From assembly GCA_016206785.1 (NCBI GenBank), contig JACQQV010000039.1:5978-69977 (forward strand): a DNA stretch of 64,000 nucleotides. The letters are read 5' to 3'. Below are positions 1,452 through 22,010 of the stretch, in pieces. The first letter of the stretch is position 1, and each line of letters begins with the position of its first letter. Both the position numbers and the translations under genes were made by a program. The stretch comes from Candidatus Omnitrophota bacterium. GTDB lineage: Bacteria; Omnitrophota; Gorgyraeia; JACQQV01. The notes beneath the pieces were generated by a model. That model saw only the letters and a list, made by a program, of their open reading frames with translations, did not search any database and was not told the DNA's origin.

Positions 1452-1828
1452 TACGACTCTTTTCGGACTGCCGCATACCCAAGAATGACATATTTGATGA
1501 TACGGTCGCGCTCCTTCGGTTCGATTTCGACGAATTCAATTCCTGCTTCGAGAACTTTTCCCTCTGTCTGTTGGGAGTGCAGGATCGAAAATTCTTCAGT
1601 CCAAACCACTCTTCCGATAGCGACGATCGGTTGGGGATCTTCTGGAAGATGAATGGTGAGTTTAAGAAGCGACTGAACAGGGACCGGTTCTGCAAGGAAC
1701 AGGCGAATCCCTCCCCCGCTGATGTCTTTGGTTTCGGTTGAAAGGGAGGAATTTTTTCGATCCTTGAGGATGGTGTACGTAATTTTCAGTCGCGTGTCTA
1801 ACCGAACGTATTTACGCTTCTCTTCCAT
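1451..1828 (-). CDS. PilZ domain protein (c-di-GMP binding)
   Basis: RxxxR (RKYVR) and DxSxxG (DISGGG) PilZ motifs; start moved to internal ATG 1828, preceded by AGGAGG at 6 nt. Confidence 0.7.
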   Translation of the reverse strand: MEEKRKYVRLDTRLKITYTILKDRKNSSLSTETKDISGGGIRLFLAEPVPVQSLLKLTIHLPEDPQPIVAIGRVVWTEEFSILHSQQTEGKVLEAGIEFVEIEPKERDRIIKYVILGYAAVRKES

Positions 1829-2288
1829 GCAACCCTCCTTCAAGCGCTTGTCTGACCAGCTCATGGACCACTTTCCCGTCCGCCCTCCCCTTTGTTTTGG
1901 GCATGAGAAGTTTCATCACTTTTCCCAGGTCCTGTAACCCCACGGCCCCACTTTCCCCAACCGCCTCTTGAATCCACTGAAGCAGTTCTTCGCGGCTCGC
2001 TTCATGGGGGCAATACGATTTTAAGATTTCGAGTTCCTTTGTTTCTTTTGCGACCAGATCTTCTCGTTTTCCCTTGGAAAAGCTGTCAATGGAGTCTTGG
2101 TGCTGTTTGATGAGTTGAACGATGACGTCCAAGACATCCCCGTCTTCTAGCCGTTCAACCTTTTTTGCGATGGAGCAATTGAGGAGTGAGGCCTTTAGAA
2201 ATCGGAGGGTCGAGACACGAAGCGCGTCGCGTCCTTTAAGCGCTGTTTTAAGATCCTCGTCTATTTTTTCAGCAAGCGTAGTGGCCAT
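1812..2288 (-). CDS. GatB/YqeY domain protein
   Basis: MATTLAEKIDEDLKTALK.. matches the N-terminus of the GatB_Yqey family; the upstream 21 codons of the ORF lack family similarity. Confidence 0.7.
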   Translation of the reverse strand: MATTLAEKIDEDLKTALKGRDALRVSTLRFLKASLLNCSIAKKVERLEDGDVLDVIVQLIKQHQDSIDSFSKGKREDLVAKETKELEILKSYCPHEASREELLQWIQEAVGESGAVGLQDLGKVMKLLMPKTKGRADGKVVHELVRQALEGGLHGREA

Positions 2289-15452: not shown

Positions 15453-16242
15453 CGATGAGCACCACGGGATCTCCGCGGCGTAAGGACAATGCCTTTGCCG
15501 CGCTGTCTTTTTGTAACGCCAGTTCCAGAAGACCTGAACTCCCAAAAAGAGCGAGGGGTCCCTGACCGCCTTCGGCGTAGGTTTTAAAGAGTCCTTTGAT
15601 CAGATACTTTCCCGCCTTGATCCACACTCCCTTCCTCTTCCCTCCTCTTTTAAAACGGAGATAATCTCTCCGGCGGATATTAGTGATGAGATTTCCAAAA
15701 CGATCTTCCGTAAGAATCTTTCCCTTCAGACGAGATGGGCGAAAAGAAACTTTCCATAGAGGAAGCGTTTTGAGTGAGGAGACGGCCTTCCCAAGACGCT
15801 GGGGCGGAATACCGAGAGAAAGCTTGGCGGCGCAAGGGGCGACAATGTCTCTTCCGTGAAAGGTGTGGCTCACGGAAGCACCTGCGCCAATCGGGGAGAT
15901 CTGATAAAGAGAAACCTTTTTCAGTTCTTCAACAATCGGACCCAAAAGACCATTGTCAGGGGCGAGGAAGAGATAATCCGACGACCGAACGATGAGGAGC
16001 GCTCTTTCCGTCCCCACGCCGGGATCCACGACAGCGAGATGAAGGGTTCCTTTGGGAAAGTATCGGTAAGTTCTCCATAAGGTCAGGCTTGCATGAAGGA
16101 TATCGTGCGGCGGAACTTGGTGTGTAATATCAACAAAGGAGACGTGGGGATTGTGTCTGAGGATGACTCCTTTCATTTCTGCCGCATAAGAGTCTTTCTC
16201 TCCAAAGTCTGTCGTCAGGGTAATGATTTTTCTCCGCTTCAT
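15442..16242 (-). CDS. S-adenosylmethionine hydroxide adenosyltransferase family (DUF62)
   Basis: N-terminal ITLTTDFG..DSY..EMKGVI signature of the SAM hydrolase / fluorinase-like fold; ATGA overlap with the upstream PilZ gene. Confidence 0.7.
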   Translation of the reverse strand: MKRRKIITLTTDFGEKDSYAAEMKGVILRHNPHVSFVDITHQVPPHDILHASLTLWRTYRYFPKGTLHLAVVDPGVGTERALLIVRSSDYLFLAPDNGLLGPIVEELKKVSLYQISPIGAGASVSHTFHGRDIVAPCAAKLSLGIPPQRLGKAVSSLKTLPLWKVSFRPSRLKGKILTEDRFGNLITNIRRRDYLRFKRGGKRKGVWIKAGKYLIKGLFKTYAEGGQGPLALFGSSGLLELALQKDSAAKALSLRRGDPVVLIDGR

Positions 16243-16607
16243 GCGTGATAGTGTGTTAAATGATACGTGACGTATTGATTCAATATCTCTCGATCCTGCA
16301 CATTCAGTCTTGTGAAATAGATCGCGACGAAGTATTTCTCAGGGTTTCCATTTTCACGAACGGTCTTTTCAGACCTCACCACAACCCCCTCGCATCGAAT
16401 CTCCTGGGGAGCTTTCCTTTCCTGACCCATGACAGGAACCGATAAGGTAATGGATACTTTTGCAAAAGTCGGAATAGGTTGAGAAACCTGACAATAGGCG
16501 CCCGTGATACTGATATTTTTCGTCTCTGTGACCAGACGAAAGGCATCCCCCCTTAACGTCATGGAAAGTGCTTTTTCGATGCGGGGGGAGCCACGCTGCT
16601 CTACCAT
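16239..16607 (-). CDS. PilZ domain protein
   Basis: RxxxR (RGSPRIEK) and NxSxxG (NISITGAY) motifs, 122 aa. Confidence 0.65.
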   Translation of the reverse strand: MVEQRGSPRIEKALSMTLRGDAFRLVTETKNISITGAYCQVSQPIPTFAKVSITLSVPVMGQERKAPQEIRCEGVVVRSEKTVRENGNPEKYFVAIYFTRLNVQDREILNQYVTYHLTHYHA

Positions 16608-17176
16608 AGAGGCTTCCTTTCACTGGAAGATTCGAGTCGAAGAAGCTGCTTCTTGACCTTTTTCCCCCATGCGAACCCTCCTATTCCCTTCGAGGTCATG
16701 ACGATGCGGTGACACGGAATAAGGAGAGGGAGAGGATTTTGATGGAGGGCTTGACCACAAGCCCGGGAACCTCCCGGACATCGGATTCTTTTGGCCACCC
16801 ACCGGTATGTTCGAACGGTGCCGCAGGGAATTTGGCGCACCAAGGTGAGCACCCTTTTTTGAAAAGGGGTCCGTGATGAAAGGTCGAGAGGGAGAAGGGG
16901 CGGAGTTTGTTTTCCTTTGAAATAGTCACACACATAAGCCTCGGTTTTTCTAAATAAGTTCCCTCTTTTTTGAATGGCGGTCGGGTATCTGAGAAGAATT
17001 TTCCTGCGCAAAAGCGACCGCTTCCCCCTTTCCCGGAGAAGAGCCGCGATCCCTTTTGGCGTTTCGACCACGCCGAGCCATCCCAGGGGACTTTTGATCA
17101 TAAAATAGGAAACGACGTCACGCGGCTTTTTTCTGAAAGAGTTGCCAGCACCCTTTCCCGCAGAAAAACTTGCCAT
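16601..17176 (-). CDS. ogt: Methylated-DNA--protein-cysteine methyltransferase (O6-alkylguanine alkyltransferase)
   Basis: Active-site PCHR motif (IPCHRIV) in the C-terminal domain; N-terminal start possibly later (MIKSPLG). Confidence 0.8.
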   Translation of the reverse strand: MASFSAGKGAGNSFRKKPRDVVSYFMIKSPLGWLGVVETPKGIAALLRERGKRSLLRRKILLRYPTAIQKRGNLFRKTEAYVCDYFKGKQTPPLLPLDLSSRTPFQKRVLTLVRQIPCGTVRTYRWVAKRIRCPGGSRACGQALHQNPLPLLIPCHRIVMTSKGIGGFAWGKKVKKQLLRLESSSERKPLW

Positions 17177-17299
17177 TTCGGTAGTACCAGTTTTTTCGTT
17201 TAAGGGGTTTATTGCATCGGACGCAATTTTTTGGCTTTTCAGTTTTCTTTGTTTGGGGAGGCGCTTCTTCTTTTTTTTCCTCTTCCACAGAACCCTCCT

Positions 17300-18331
17300 T
17301 TATTTCTCAGTTGTTTTCTGCTGTATCATCCATTGTTTTTCTAAAAAGGCGTTCAATTTTTCACGGCTGTCATCCGCCATCGACACAAAAGAGATCCCAA
17401 CGCACTCCATGTGGCTTGCGTTCTGGAGATGTTGCCAAACCACTTCTCCGAGGATACGAAGGGGATCGGAGTGAAAAGGCACCTTGAGGCTTAACTGAAA
17501 GAAAGTGGGCAGCGCCTCTGAAGGAGGCCGTTCGATACAAAGACCCCCTGGGGAAATATTCAAAATACGGGCCTTTGTTTTCGTGGTCCGTTGATAAACA
17601 GTTCCGAGTTCCAAAGAAGGGCGGTCCTCAAAAGGAAGGGCATCACAGACAAGACGCGGGTGTTGTCTTTTTTCCAAAAATCGTTCTTCACGAGGGAGAT
17701 GTCCCTGTTCTTGGAGGAAGGTTCCTTTGAGTTCCAAGAGCTTTTGTCCATCGATGAGTTCAATCGCTTCAGGCTCTGAAGTGGTATAGGCAGGATGTGA
17801 AAAGACACCGGTAACGAAGAAATAGCCACCGGTAGCTCCCCTTTTTTGCACCTTCTCGTTAAACTCCTGAATGTCCCGAGAGTCAAAAAATGTTCTCCGA
17901 TTGTCACAACGTACAAGATACCGTTTATGGCGGAGCTGGAAAGAGTCTCCCGTTCCTTCGATTTGAATGCTTGGCCACATCTTCTCGAAAATCCGAAGGC
18001 AAAGTTTTGAAAAATCTTCCTCCTTCATTTCTCTCAACTCTTCAAGGCCCACCCCCTCCACTTTTTTCGACAGCGGGAGATCGCTTTTCTCAGAAGTCTG
18101 AGGAACTGTCCGACGGGATTCCTTCTTCCATAGAAAGCCTGTCCCCATGGGAAGGAAGATCCATGAAAGGAGAGTGAGGAGAAGGGCAAGGACCCTCACG
18201 TGAAGGGGGTAATGGCTTGCTGCGATATTGGCGATAAAAAGGAGGGAGAGAGGAGCCAAAGAAATCCATGCCACTGTAATCACGACGCCCATAGTCAGAA
18301 AATTCTTTCTCAAGAAACGCTTCCCTTCCAA
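17300..18331 (-). CDS. Membrane-anchored protein with Mrr-like restriction-endonuclease-fold domain fused to a C-terminal PilZ domain
   Basis: Two N-terminal TM helices; middle block EDFSKLCLRIFEKMW..GDSFQLRHKRYLVRCDNRR..GGYFFVTGVFS..LIDGQKLLEL matches the Mrr_cat layout; the (Q/E)xK lysine is replaced (RCD); C-terminus has PilZ motifs RLVCD / NISPGG. Confidence 0.6.
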   Translation of the reverse strand: MEGKRFLRKNFLTMGVVITVAWISLAPLSLLFIANIAASHYPLHVRVLALLLTLLSWIFLPMGTGFLWKKESRRTVPQTSEKSDLPLSKKVEGVGLEELREMKEEDFSKLCLRIFEKMWPSIQIEGTGDSFQLRHKRYLVRCDNRRTFFDSRDIQEFNEKVQKRGATGGYFFVTGVFSHPAYTTSEPEAIELIDGQKLLELKGTFLQEQGHLPREERFLEKRQHPRLVCDALPFEDRPSLELGTVYQRTTKTKARILNISPGGLCIERPPSEALPTFFQLSLKVPFHSDPLRILGEVVWQHLQNASHMECVGISFVSMADDSREKLNAFLEKQWMIQQKTTEK

Positions 18332-18714
18332 TTTTTGATATAAGAAACAATTTCTTCCAGGGGGGTCCCTGGGCCGAACAGCCTTCCAACACCCAGCTTG
18401 GAGAGTTTTTTTTGATCTGCTTCGGGAATGATCCCTCCTCCGGTCACCAACATCTCCTTGATTCCTTTTTCTTTCAAAAGCTTCATCATCTTTCGGAACA
18501 CGGTCATATGGGATCCTGTAAGAACACTCACGGCGATGACGTTTGCCTTCTTTTGAATCGCTGCGTTGACGATCATTTCGGGTGTTTGCCGGAGCCCCAG
18601 ATAGATAACGTCCATCCCCCCCTCTTTGAGGGCAGAGGCGACGATCTGAATTCCTCGATCATGTCCGTCTAGACCCGGCTTTGCCAATACAATTTTTTTC
18701 TTTTTTTTCATCAT
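18310..18714 (-). CDS. Methylmalonyl-CoA mutase small (cobalamin-binding) subunit
   Basis: B12-binding DxHxxG motif (DGHDRG), 134 aa. Confidence 0.85.
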   Translation of the reverse strand: MMKKKKKIVLAKPGLDGHDRGIQIVASALKEGGMDVIYLGLRQTPEMIVNAAIQKKANVIAVSVLTGSHMTVFRKMMKLLKEKGIKEMLVTGGGIIPEADQKKLSKLGVGRLFGPGTPLEEIVSYIKNWKGSVS

Positions 18715-18715
18715 C

Positions 18716-20284
18716 TCAAAAAATCGGTTTCTGGTGGTATTCGCCGAACACCCTCTTTAGTTTCTCGACGATTTCTCCCAAGGTGGCGTAGGCATGCGCC
18801 GCCTCAACGAGGCTCTCCATTAAATTTTCCTCGGTTTTCGCAGCCTCTCCAAGGTGCTCAAGCGCTTGTCTGACTTTTTGGGGGCTTCTCATCTTGCGTA
18901 CCCGTTTAAGCCGCGCCACTTGCTTGCGTTCGATACCGGCTCCGATGGTGAGAAGTGGAATCTCGGATTCTTCCTTTTGAAGATAGGCATTCACCCCGAC
19001 GATAATTCTTTTCTTTTGCTCGATTTCCCGCTGATAGCACCTTGCGGCGTGGGCGATCTCCTTCTGGAAGAAACCCTGTTCCAGCGCAGGGACAACCCCT
19101 CCTTTTTCCTGAATACGTCGGAAATATTCTTCCGCTCTGTGTTCTAGACGGTCGGTCAGGCATTCAATCGCATAAGATCCTGCCAGCGGATCCACAATCT
19201 CCGTTATTCCGATCTCATGGAGAAGAATTTGTTGCGTACGAAGAGCGATACGGACCGCTTTTTCGGTAGGGAGTGCCAGTTGTTCATCCATCGAGTTGGT
19301 ATGGAGACTTTGCGTCCCACCCAGTACGGCGGAGAGGGCCTCATAGGCTGTGCGAACAATATTGTTTTCTGGTTGCTGGCGTGTGAGTGTACACCCTGCG
19401 GTTTGAGTGTGAAACCGCAAAAGCCAAGAACGTTTCTTTTTTGCCTTGTACTCGTTTCTCATCTTTTTCGCCCAAATCCTCCGTGCCGCTCGGAATTTCG
19501 CAATTTCTTCCAAGAAGTTTAAGTGGGCATTGAAGAAGAAGGAAAGGCGGGGGGCGAAATGGTCAACGGCCAATCCCCGCTTAAGACTTTCTTCCACGTA
19601 GGTAAAACCATCCGCGAGGGTAAACGCAAGTTCCTGAGCGGCCGTGGAACCCGCCTCACGGATATGGTACCCACTGATGCTGATGGTGTTCCAAAGGGGC
19701 AAGTGATGCGTGCAGTGTTCAATGACATCGACGACGAGTTTCAAGGAAGGCCTGGGTGGGAAGATCCATTCCCTCTGCGCAATGTATTCTTTAAGGATGT
19801 CGTTCTGAAGGGTACCTTTTAGACGGCGCAGAGAAGCCCCTTGTTTCTGAGCGCAGGCAATGTAAAAAGCAAGCATCACGATGGCGGGTCCATTAATGGT
19901 CATGGAGGTAGAGATGCGATCGAGAGATATTTTCTTAAAGAGATCTTCCATGTCTTGAAGGGTATCGATGGCCACCCCGCAACGTCCCACTTCTCCCTCG
20001 GCTCTGGGGCTATCGGAATCAACGCCCATGAGGGTAGGCATGTCAAATGCGACTGAGAGTCCCATCTGCCCTTCTGCGAGGAGAAGATGAAAGCGTTTGT
20101 TTGTTTCTTCTGCGGTTCCGAATCCAGCAAATTCCCGGATCGTCCATGGCTTTTGACGATACATCGTAGGGTGGATGCCCCGCGTAAAGGGAAAGGTCCC
20201 AGGATCCCCAAGGTGGTGTGCATAGCCTCTTTCCGGAAAGTCGTTCGGCGTGTAATAGGTTCTGTTTCTTCTGGAAGATGTCAT
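18716..20284 (-). CDS. Methylmalonyl-CoA mutase large (catalytic) subunit
   Basis: Conserved MCM N-terminus (..FPFTRGIHPTMYRQKPWTIREFAGFG..), 522 aa. Confidence 0.9.
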   Translation of the reverse strand: MTSSRRNRTYYTPNDFPERGYAHHLGDPGTFPFTRGIHPTMYRQKPWTIREFAGFGTAEETNKRFHLLLAEGQMGLSVAFDMPTLMGVDSDSPRAEGEVGRCGVAIDTLQDMEDLFKKISLDRISTSMTINGPAIVMLAFYIACAQKQGASLRRLKGTLQNDILKEYIAQREWIFPPRPSLKLVVDVIEHCTHHLPLWNTISISGYHIREAGSTAAQELAFTLADGFTYVEESLKRGLAVDHFAPRLSFFFNAHLNFLEEIAKFRAARRIWAKKMRNEYKAKKKRSWLLRFHTQTAGCTLTRQQPENNIVRTAYEALSAVLGGTQSLHTNSMDEQLALPTEKAVRIALRTQQILLHEIGITEIVDPLAGSYAIECLTDRLEHRAEEYFRRIQEKGGVVPALEQGFFQKEIAHAARCYQREIEQKKRIIVGVNAYLQKEESEIPLLTIGAGIERKQVARLKRVRKMRSPQKVRQALEHLGEAAKTEENLMESLVEAAHAYATLGEIVEKLKRVFGEYHQKPIF

Positions 20285-21719: not shown

Positions 21720-21748
21720 AATTATACCTGAAAAGGGTTGTTTTGTCA
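21720..21748 (-). promoter_or_regulatory. Perfect-consensus sigma70 promoter TTGACA-17-TATAAT
   Basis: -35 TTGACA (21748..21743), 17-nt spacer, -10 TATAAT (21725..21720); predicted TSS about 8 nt before the terminator hairpin. Confidence 0.55.
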
Positions 21749-21791
21749 ATGCTTCAAAGACAGAAAGGTCCGAACGACTTCCGAAGGGAGC

Positions 21792-21950: not shown

Positions 21951-21981
21951 AAAAAAAAGGCCGCCCTTCATCAGGGCGGCC
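21951..21981 (-). terminator. Intrinsic terminator after the 49-aa membrane-protein gene
   Basis: Perfect 8-bp stem GGCCGCCC/GGGCGGCC, 7-nt loop, followed by U8 on the minus strand. Confidence 0.7.
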
Positions 21982-22010
21982 TCGTATGCTTCTTGGAGAG
22001 CCTAGTGGAT

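Follow-up and report, generated by a model that had tools for sequence, protein, structure and literature searches.

Can a decayed restriction endonuclease fold serve as part of a second-messenger receptor? The question is raised by a minus-strand gene in a 64,000-nucleotide stretch of DNA (hereafter, the window) from a Candidatus Omnitrophota bacterium (GenBank assembly GCA_016206785.1, contig JACQQV010000039.1, positions 5,978 to 69,977). An earlier note, made from the letters alone, had described the product as a membrane-anchored Mrr-type nuclease fold fused to a PilZ receptor domain for cyclic di-GMP (c-di-GMP); the GenBank annotation reads only "PilZ domain-containing protein". The current analysis allows us to propose an answer. 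On balance, the product of the gene is probably a c-di-GMP receptor of the inner membrane, specific to the lineage Candidatus Omnitrophota, in which a transmembrane (TM) hairpin anchors a noncatalytic nuclease-fold output module and a canonical PilZ domain, both of them in the cytoplasm. We refer to the degenerate Mrr-type domain as iMrr and to the gene as the iMrr-PilZ gene.

The gene and its predicted membrane anchor

The open reading frame (ORF) at 17300..18331 is present on the minus strand, encodes 343 amino acids (aa) from its first TTG and contains in its translation all of the peptides quoted earlier, so that the frame stands as it was described. Its start does not. Translation most likely begins at codon 7 of the 343-aa ORF, the TTG at 18313, and yields a product of 337 aa, because the homologs all open with MRKNFLT at this codon, because the codon overlaps the stop of the upstream gene as TTGA, and because the NCBI protein MBI4436931.1, of the same 90% cluster, is 337 aa long. 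Residue numbers used here (e.g. R141, R222) follow the 343-aa ORF. The gene and the parts of its product are as follows.

17300..18313, minus strand: iMrr-PilZ gene (two TM helices, iMrr, PilZ), likely start TTG 18313, 337 aa; the longest ORF extends to 18331
18218..18292, minus strand: TM helix 1, residues ~14-38 (hydropathy; helix 5-38 in the AlphaFold (AF2) model)
18128..18202, minus strand: TM helix 2, residues ~44-68 (hydropathy, AF2), with the invariant motif SWIxLxMGxG..W
18047..18127, minus strand: linker 1, residues 69-95, variable and of low confidence (predicted local confidence, pLDDT, <50 for 63-94; dN/dS 0.44)
17714..18046, minus strand: degenerate Mrr-type PD-(D/E)xK domain (iMrr), residues 96-206 (Pfam Mrr_cat, domain-only AF2 model, Foldseek)
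17339..17674, minus strand: PilZ domain, residues 220-331 (Pfam, AF2, Foldseek)

The gene is conserved and under purifying selection. Compared with its homolog at locus L009, the ratio of non-synonymous to synonymous substitution rates (dN/dS) is 0.12 overall, 0.10 in the TM region, 0.14 in iMrr, 0.26-0.44 in the linkers and, lowest of all segments, 0.07 in PilZ, values which are approximate since dS is close to saturation in this comparison. The two N-terminal TM helices proposed earlier are borne out by two hydrophobic stretches at residues ~14-38 and ~44-68 (19-residue windows, Kyte-Doolittle >1.6), both of which form long helices in the AF2 model. W57, G63, G65 and W68 are invariant in this hairpin, and a basic KKESRR stretch follows the second helix, from which an N-in/C-in orientation is predicted.

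An Mrr-type fold without the canonical catalytic motif

The assignment of the first cytoplasmic domain to the Mrr_cat fold is supported by profile, model and structural comparison alike. The Pfam match to Mrr_cat covers residues 99-201 (E=3.3e-10; 40.5 bits, with the gathering score at 21), and an iMrr profile retrieves 921 proteins at E<=1e-3, of which those inspected are Mrr_cat proteins. Modelled alone, iMrr reaches a pLDDT of 86.5 and a predicted TM-score (pTM) of 0.80, with the order α-βββ-α-β-α-β-α, in which the αβββαβ core of restriction endonucleases is seen. The Foldseek matches are MspJI (TMq 0.68), AspBHI (0.63) and AF1548 (0.59), together with EcoT38I, Ecl18kI, Cdn1, the nuclease domain of Avs4 and the inactive, restriction endonuclease (REase)-like N-terminal domain of Rpb5; their E-values are modest (1e-3 to 1e-1), yet the matches are consistently PD-(D/E)xK proteins. 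A match to the inactive nuclease family NA-iREase1 (PF22722) is sub-threshold (E=0.2, 12.1 bits against 27), and searches of PDB sequences with the two profiles A1 and A2 gave no match for the Mrr part. In the full-length model, pLDDT is 75-93 in both cytoplasmic domains and low in the linkers 63-94 and 208-223.

For the active-site comparison, 152 related Mrr_cat domains from the search of representatives were aligned with hmmalign onto the family profile and set against the 15 family sequences. Most of the 152 have the canonical motifs.

Catalytic Lys column: Lys in 133 of 152 related domains; in the iMrr-PilZ family Glu in 12, Asp in 3 and Lys in 0 of 15
(E/Q) column: Gln in 75 and Glu in 58 of 152 related domains; in the family His in 8, Arg in 4, and Cys, Tyr and Ala in 1 each
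β2 Asp column: Asp in 133 of 152 related domains; in the family Asp in 7, Asn in 2, Glu in 1, Leu in 1, deleted in 4
17903..17911, minus strand: R141-C142-D143, at the catalytic (E/Q)xK position in the alignment with the 152 domains

The catalytic Lys is indeed replaced, as had been noticed, by R141-C142-D143 in the window protein and by (H/R)C(E/D) across the family. The loss is wider than the earlier note stated: conservation is likewise missing at the (E/Q) residue and at the β2 Asp, and the four sequences with a deleted β2 segment include that of the window protein. The Cys that separates the E/Q and K positions has been retained, together with the structural motifs GYFxTTGxFS and IELIDG; invariant residues particular to the family are K136, N144, T147-F-F-D150-S-R152 and E/D143. 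To judge from these alignments, the canonical catalytic site is not under selection, whereas the iMrr domain as a whole is. The domain should not be filed as a restriction endonuclease, since the fold is kept and the D...(E/Q)xK motif is not. It is also acidic, with a median isoelectric point (pI) of 5.4 and a net charge of -4, against pI 7.5 and +0.5 in the related canonical domains.

A canonical PilZ domain

By every sequence and structure criterion tested, the protein belongs to the PilZ superfamily, as had been proposed, and c-di-GMP binding is predicted. Residues 220-331 match PilZ (PF07238) in Pfam with E=3.9e-11 and 43.6 bits against a gathering score of 22.5; NCBIfam, beyond these Pfam calls, gives only a sub-threshold match to the PilZ paralog family TIGR02266. 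The AF2 model contains a six-stranded barrel (239-243, 254-259, 263-268, 277-283, 291-303 and 308-318) with a C-terminal helix at 320-342, and Foldseek matches it with probability 1.0 to c-di-GMP-bound PilZ structures (4xrn, Alg44 4rt0, MotI 5vx6, YcgR 5y6f, MrkH 5kgo and PlzA 7mie). Both c-di-GMP motifs, in their refined definitions RxxxR and [D/N]hSxxG (10.1101/814665), are present, at the following positions.

17654..17668, minus strand: motif 1, R222-Q-H-P-R226 (RxxxR), in the interdomain linker; both Arg invariant in the 14 sequences of A1
17543..17560, minus strand: motif 2, N258-I-S260-P-G-G263 ([D/N]hSxxG); S260 and G263 invariant, N258 in at least 90%

The NISPGG named earlier is the second motif; the first is R222-Q-H-P-R226, which lies just before the RLVCD that had been quoted with it. 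The interdomain linker 208-223, which leads into RxxxR, has low AF2 confidence and looks flexible. Both motifs are also kept in P0015, a divergent member of the family.

Distribution in Omnitrophota

The combination of an Mrr fold with PilZ is rare. A search of 5.8 billion protein clusters returned only 14 relatives at 47-100% identity, all of which carry PF07238 and PF04471 and none of which is named in the output. An exhaustive HMMER search of 1.84 billion representatives with a profile of iMrr only gave one family representative (E=4e-56) and the divergent P0015 (E=1.6e-19) with the same architecture, below which scores fall to ordinary Mrr_cat proteins. A pattern scan of 185,579 species genomes returned a single locus, L007, from a metagenome-assembled genome labelled "uncultured Omnitrophica bacterium". 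The family comprises some 15 sequence clusters, all of them apparently from Omnitrophota. It had been suggested that the fusion is not a described family, and this agrees with the literature search, in which Mrr or nuclease and PilZ met only in incidental co-mentions (e.g. strain genotypes) and no description of a fusion was found; a survey of PilZ architectures likewise mentions no fusion of a nuclease fold with PilZ (10.1101/814665).

Other membrane-anchored Mrr_cat proteins were encountered in these searches. A second family, P0061 and P0164-P0166 (loci L011 and L012, outside the window), appears to be Omnitrophota-specific and consists of proteins of 790-980 aa in which an N-terminal region of coiled-coil or AMIN-like type is followed by a TM helix, a degenerate Mrr_cat domain, a coiled coil of ~350 residues and a C-terminal PilZ domain, so that Mrr-like and PilZ domains are paired in two Omnitrophota families. 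Its Mrr_cat domain is without the β2 Asp and keeps the Lys, and its PilZ domain is without RxxxR. The representative-search matches P0016 and P0018 are membrane-anchored and carry Mrr_cat twice in tandem, once in canonical form and once without catalytic residues; P0018 ends in a zinc ribbon of Top1 type. Mrr_cat proteins with a TM anchor are frequent among the closest relatives, and they appear to be uncharacterised.

Genomic context

The gene order was read from every locus fetched, short contigs covering only part of it. On the same strand and tightly packed, the loci share genes for a VanZ-like protein, the methylmalonyl-CoA mutase catalytic subunit, its B12-binding subunit, iMrr-PilZ, a zinc finger protein, Ogt, a stand-alone PilZ protein, a SAM_HAT protein, an M48 peptidase, an HhH-GPD glycosylase, a cyclic nucleotide monophosphate (cNMP)-patatin protein and β-oxidation. 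SAM_HAT is absent from L001-L003, the HhH-GPD gene is not called in L004-L006, and L007 is without Ogt and keeps the zinc finger and PilZ protein; the locus of the divergent P0015 has the same gene order. The neighbours in the window are the following.

18716..20284, minus strand: methylmalonyl-CoA mutase catalytic subunit, 522 aa
18310..18714, minus strand: B12-binding subunit of the split methylmalonyl-CoA mutase, 134 aa, whose stop overlaps the iMrr-PilZ start
17118..17288, minus strand: conserved zinc-finger ORF, 56 aa, with a CxxC-x17-CxxxC finger of FCS/TRASH type and an acidic E/K-rich tail
16601..17176, minus strand: ogt ORF, probably over-extended at its 5' end; homologs have 164-182 aa, and an internal ATG (MIKSPLGW, ~17101) fits
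16239..16607, minus strand: stand-alone PilZ protein, 122 aa (Pfam E=2.5e-9), RxxxR and NxSxxG intact
1454..1912, minus strand: further PilZ-domain open frame, up to 153 aa (Pfam E=1.1e-15), with RxxxR and [D/N]xSxxG
21983..21957, minus strand: strong terminator-like hairpin of 11 pairs, 8 of which are G-C, with a T-run after it (pattern match)
21749..21721, minus strand: sigma-70 consensus promoter, 12/12 perfect (pattern match), just downstream of the hairpin

A methylmalonyl-CoA mutase had been placed immediately upstream; the mutase is there, but the direct neighbour is its separate B12-binding subunit, to which the iMrr-PilZ gene is translationally coupled in all loci. No MeaB/ArgK-like chaperone gene follows the split mutase (18310..20284, minus strand). 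The long minus-strand operon to which the iMrr-PilZ gene belongs probably starts at the hairpin and the promoter, and pattern matching found no convincing terminator inside the minus-strand run.

On the downstream side, the earlier claim that ogt follows directly with overlapping codons has to be given up, as the zinc-finger ORF intervenes and ogt does not overlap iMrr-PilZ. The zinc-finger ORF stands directly after iMrr-PilZ in all six neighbourhoods checked (the window, L001, L004, L007, L008 and L009), with homologs at the following positions.

L001: 4006-4287
L004: 1839-2048
L007: 11010-11336
L008: 4363-4581
L009: 1185-1499

These proteins have 56-108 aa, a basic finger (pI ~10) with a WYYRxG motif (WYYRNGKxFCxKGCW) and a variable, acidic E/K-rich tail; against Pfam they give only sub-threshold matches to zf-FLZ (FCS-type) and LIM. 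The ORF overlaps the over-long ogt ORF in another frame, and it is sometimes overlooked by gene callers or joined by them to ogt (L006, L009). An apparent fusion of the zinc finger to Ogt in L009 was rejected, as the 265-aa call is an over-extended ORF with the finger in a separate frame. The stand-alone PilZ protein is present in L001-L009 and is 28% identical to the fused PilZ domain.

A role in defence was considered and rejected: PADLOC returned no defence model, only a non-significant mREase_IV match (E=0.056), and the synteny is that of housekeeping genes. iMrr-PilZ is not a defence effector.

Proposed mechanism and alternative explanations

For the membrane receptor favoured here we propose a series of linked steps. 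c-di-GMP would bind to RxxxR in the flexible linker between iMrr and PilZ and to [D/N]hSxxG on the barrel, and its binding would clamp the N-terminal domain onto the barrel, as in the two-domain PilZ receptors YcgR, MrkH and PlzA. This closure may in turn decide whether the dead nuclease fold can hold on to a partner at the membrane, and one candidate for that partner is the basic zinc-finger protein encoded next door. There is precedent for two-domain PilZ proteins that bind partners or nucleic acid in dependence on c-di-GMP (PilZ architectures are reviewed in 10.1101/814665), and PlzA binds DNA and RNA only with c-di-GMP (PMC9915621). As iMrr is acidic, its partner is likelier to be a protein than bulk DNA, and the acidic surface together with the highly conserved TM hairpin favours protein partners at the membrane. 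A bolder version of the proposal, which we regard as a long shot, is that the dead Mrr fold is a new PilZ output domain through which c-di-GMP controls the capture and release, at the inner membrane, of DNA itself or of a partner that binds nucleic acid, namely the basic, FCS-type zinc-finger protein encoded beside it. If this were true, Omnitrophota would have turned a decayed restriction enzyme into a switch, gated by c-di-GMP, for sequestration at the membrane, and their second family, with its degenerate Mrr_cat domain, coiled coil and PilZ, would be a related scaffold.

Several observations weigh against the favoured receptor. The synteny spans many metabolic genes and may reflect only a compact, slowly rearranging genome. 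A zinc-finger homolog, 57% identical, stands alone in an unrelated context in another organism (L013), which weakens the idea of an obligatory module of iMrr-PilZ and zinc finger. A motif scan of the 64-kb window and of loci L001-L008 found no GGDEF motif (GG[D/E]EF), and the short EAL pattern gave only non-specific matches in the window; with many PilZ receptors and no GGDEF in the window, this suggests that the cyclases are encoded elsewhere. L013, from the other organism, does encode GGDEF-PilZ proteins. The full-length pTM of 0.39 means that the relative orientation of the domains is not confidently predicted, and the source organisms are uncultured. Finally, iMrr is judged inactive from its sequence, and a Lys-to-Glu replacement occurs in genuine nucleases such as BamHI.

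This last point leads to the explanation that the protein is a nuclease which is tethered to the membrane, is active through a variant site (e.g. E116, D/E143, D150) and is switched by c-di-GMP, resembling Cdn1, Card1, Cap4 and NucC. The residue at the Lys position is invariantly acidic (Glu in 12, Asp in 3), as in BamHI-type enzymes that carry Glu for Lys; little or no variation is seen at E116, on helix α1, and at D150; and Cdn1 and the Avs4 nuclease domain are among the Foldseek matches. All the same, we consider such a nuclease distinctly improbable, as the metal-binding β2 Asp is found in only 7 of 15 sequences with the segment deleted in four, including the window protein, and the variable or deleted segment argues against a variant active site; the E/Q position is occupied by H, R, C, Y or A; and a single-copy gene in a conserved housekeeping operon, without a PADLOC match, is not what is seen in a variable defence island. 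If the fold is dead, it could still bind DNA, perhaps damaged or modified, and so tether DNA, or recruit the neighbouring Ogt or HhH-GPD glycosylase, at the membrane under the control of c-di-GMP. Mrr_cat domains are DNA-binding nuclease modules, inactive REase folds bind nucleic acid elsewhere (NA-iREase1; the Rpb5 match), and c-di-GMP-dependent DNA binding is known for the PilZ proteins PlzA and MrkH; moreover, ogt lies two genes downstream and the glycosylase gene a few genes beyond it in most loci. The acidity of iMrr (pI 5.4 against 7.5 in related canonical domains, median net charge -4) speaks against this tether, and the adjacency is weak evidence, as the whole region is one long housekeeping operon. 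A functional link to Ogt is weakened further by L007, which is otherwise syntenic and keeps the zinc finger and PilZ protein without Ogt, and the HhH-GPD gene is not called in L004-L006. We therefore hold a DNA tether or repair recruiter to be unlikely.

It could also be argued that the protein does not signal at all and is a structural or scaffolding membrane protein, whose nuclease and PilZ folds are relics used for oligomerisation. The second Omnitrophota family lends this some plausibility, since P0061 and P0164-P0166 pair a TM helix, a degenerate Mrr_cat domain and a coiled coil with a PilZ domain lacking RxxxR, so that the pairing is possible without a complete c-di-GMP site. In the iMrr-PilZ family, however, both c-di-GMP motifs are invariant or nearly so down to ~46-50% identity, also in the divergent P0015, and PilZ is the segment with the lowest dN/dS (0.07); the probability of a mere scaffold seems to us slight. 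The c-di-GMP receptor remains the reading that we prefer; that c-di-GMP is bound, that the domains then close and which partner is held are what we infer in it.

Comparison with known systems

The iMrr-PilZ protein shares with YcgR, MotI/DgrA, MrkH and PlzA a canonical C-terminal PilZ barrel with its helix and an RxxxR motif in the linker after the N-terminal partner domain, and its output would be expected, as in these receptors, to come from ligand-induced domain closure and the binding of a partner or DNA (10.1101/814665; PMC9915621). In contrast to the YcgR-type (xPilZ-PilZ) receptors, its N-terminal partner is an α/β REase fold, not a PilZ-derived β-barrel (PilZN, PilZNR, PilZN2, PilZN3), and it is anchored by a conserved TM hairpin. 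Without a β-barrel in the N-terminal position, it does not count as an xPilZ-PilZ protein.

With the Mrr_cat (PF04471) type IV enzymes Mrr, MspJI, AspBHI and AF1548, the protein has in common the profile match, the αβββαβ core, GYFxTTGxFS, IELIDG and the Cys between the E/Q and K positions. It differs from them in that the triad D...(E/Q)xK is not conserved, the domain is acidic, and both a DNA-recognition domain (winged helix or SRA) and a defence-island context are absent. A PD-(D/E)xK fold without an active site is also found in NA-iREase1 and in the N-terminal domain of Rpb5, where it is a binding or sensor module, and Rpb5 is among the best structural matches. Unlike NA-iREase1, to which its profile match is sub-threshold, iMrr has no NACHT/STAND partner and is fused to a second-messenger receptor.

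The coupling of a nucleotide second-messenger sensor to an REase-fold domain is shared with Cdn1, Card1, Cap4 and NucC, and Cdn1 is among the structural matches. These effectors have CARF or SAVED sensors or direct allosteric pockets and intact active sites, respond to defence signals and are encoded in clustered regularly interspaced short palindromic repeat (CRISPR) or cyclic oligonucleotide-based antiphage signalling system (CBASS) loci; iMrr-PilZ, by contrast, is predicted to use PilZ and c-di-GMP, has lost the active site and belongs to a housekeeping operon. Among c-di-GMP effectors, PilZ receptors have the widest distribution, and the role of each depends on its partner domain. With ~15 sequence clusters in one phylum, the scope of the family is narrow, and it may be seen as a useful curiosity for specialists in c-di-GMP and in PD-(D/E)xK proteins rather than as the answer to an old question. 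If confirmed, it would offer a first way into c-di-GMP signalling in the Omnitrophota, which form a large uncultured phylum, and a nuclease that has been inactivated and exapted would join the known output modules of second messengers.

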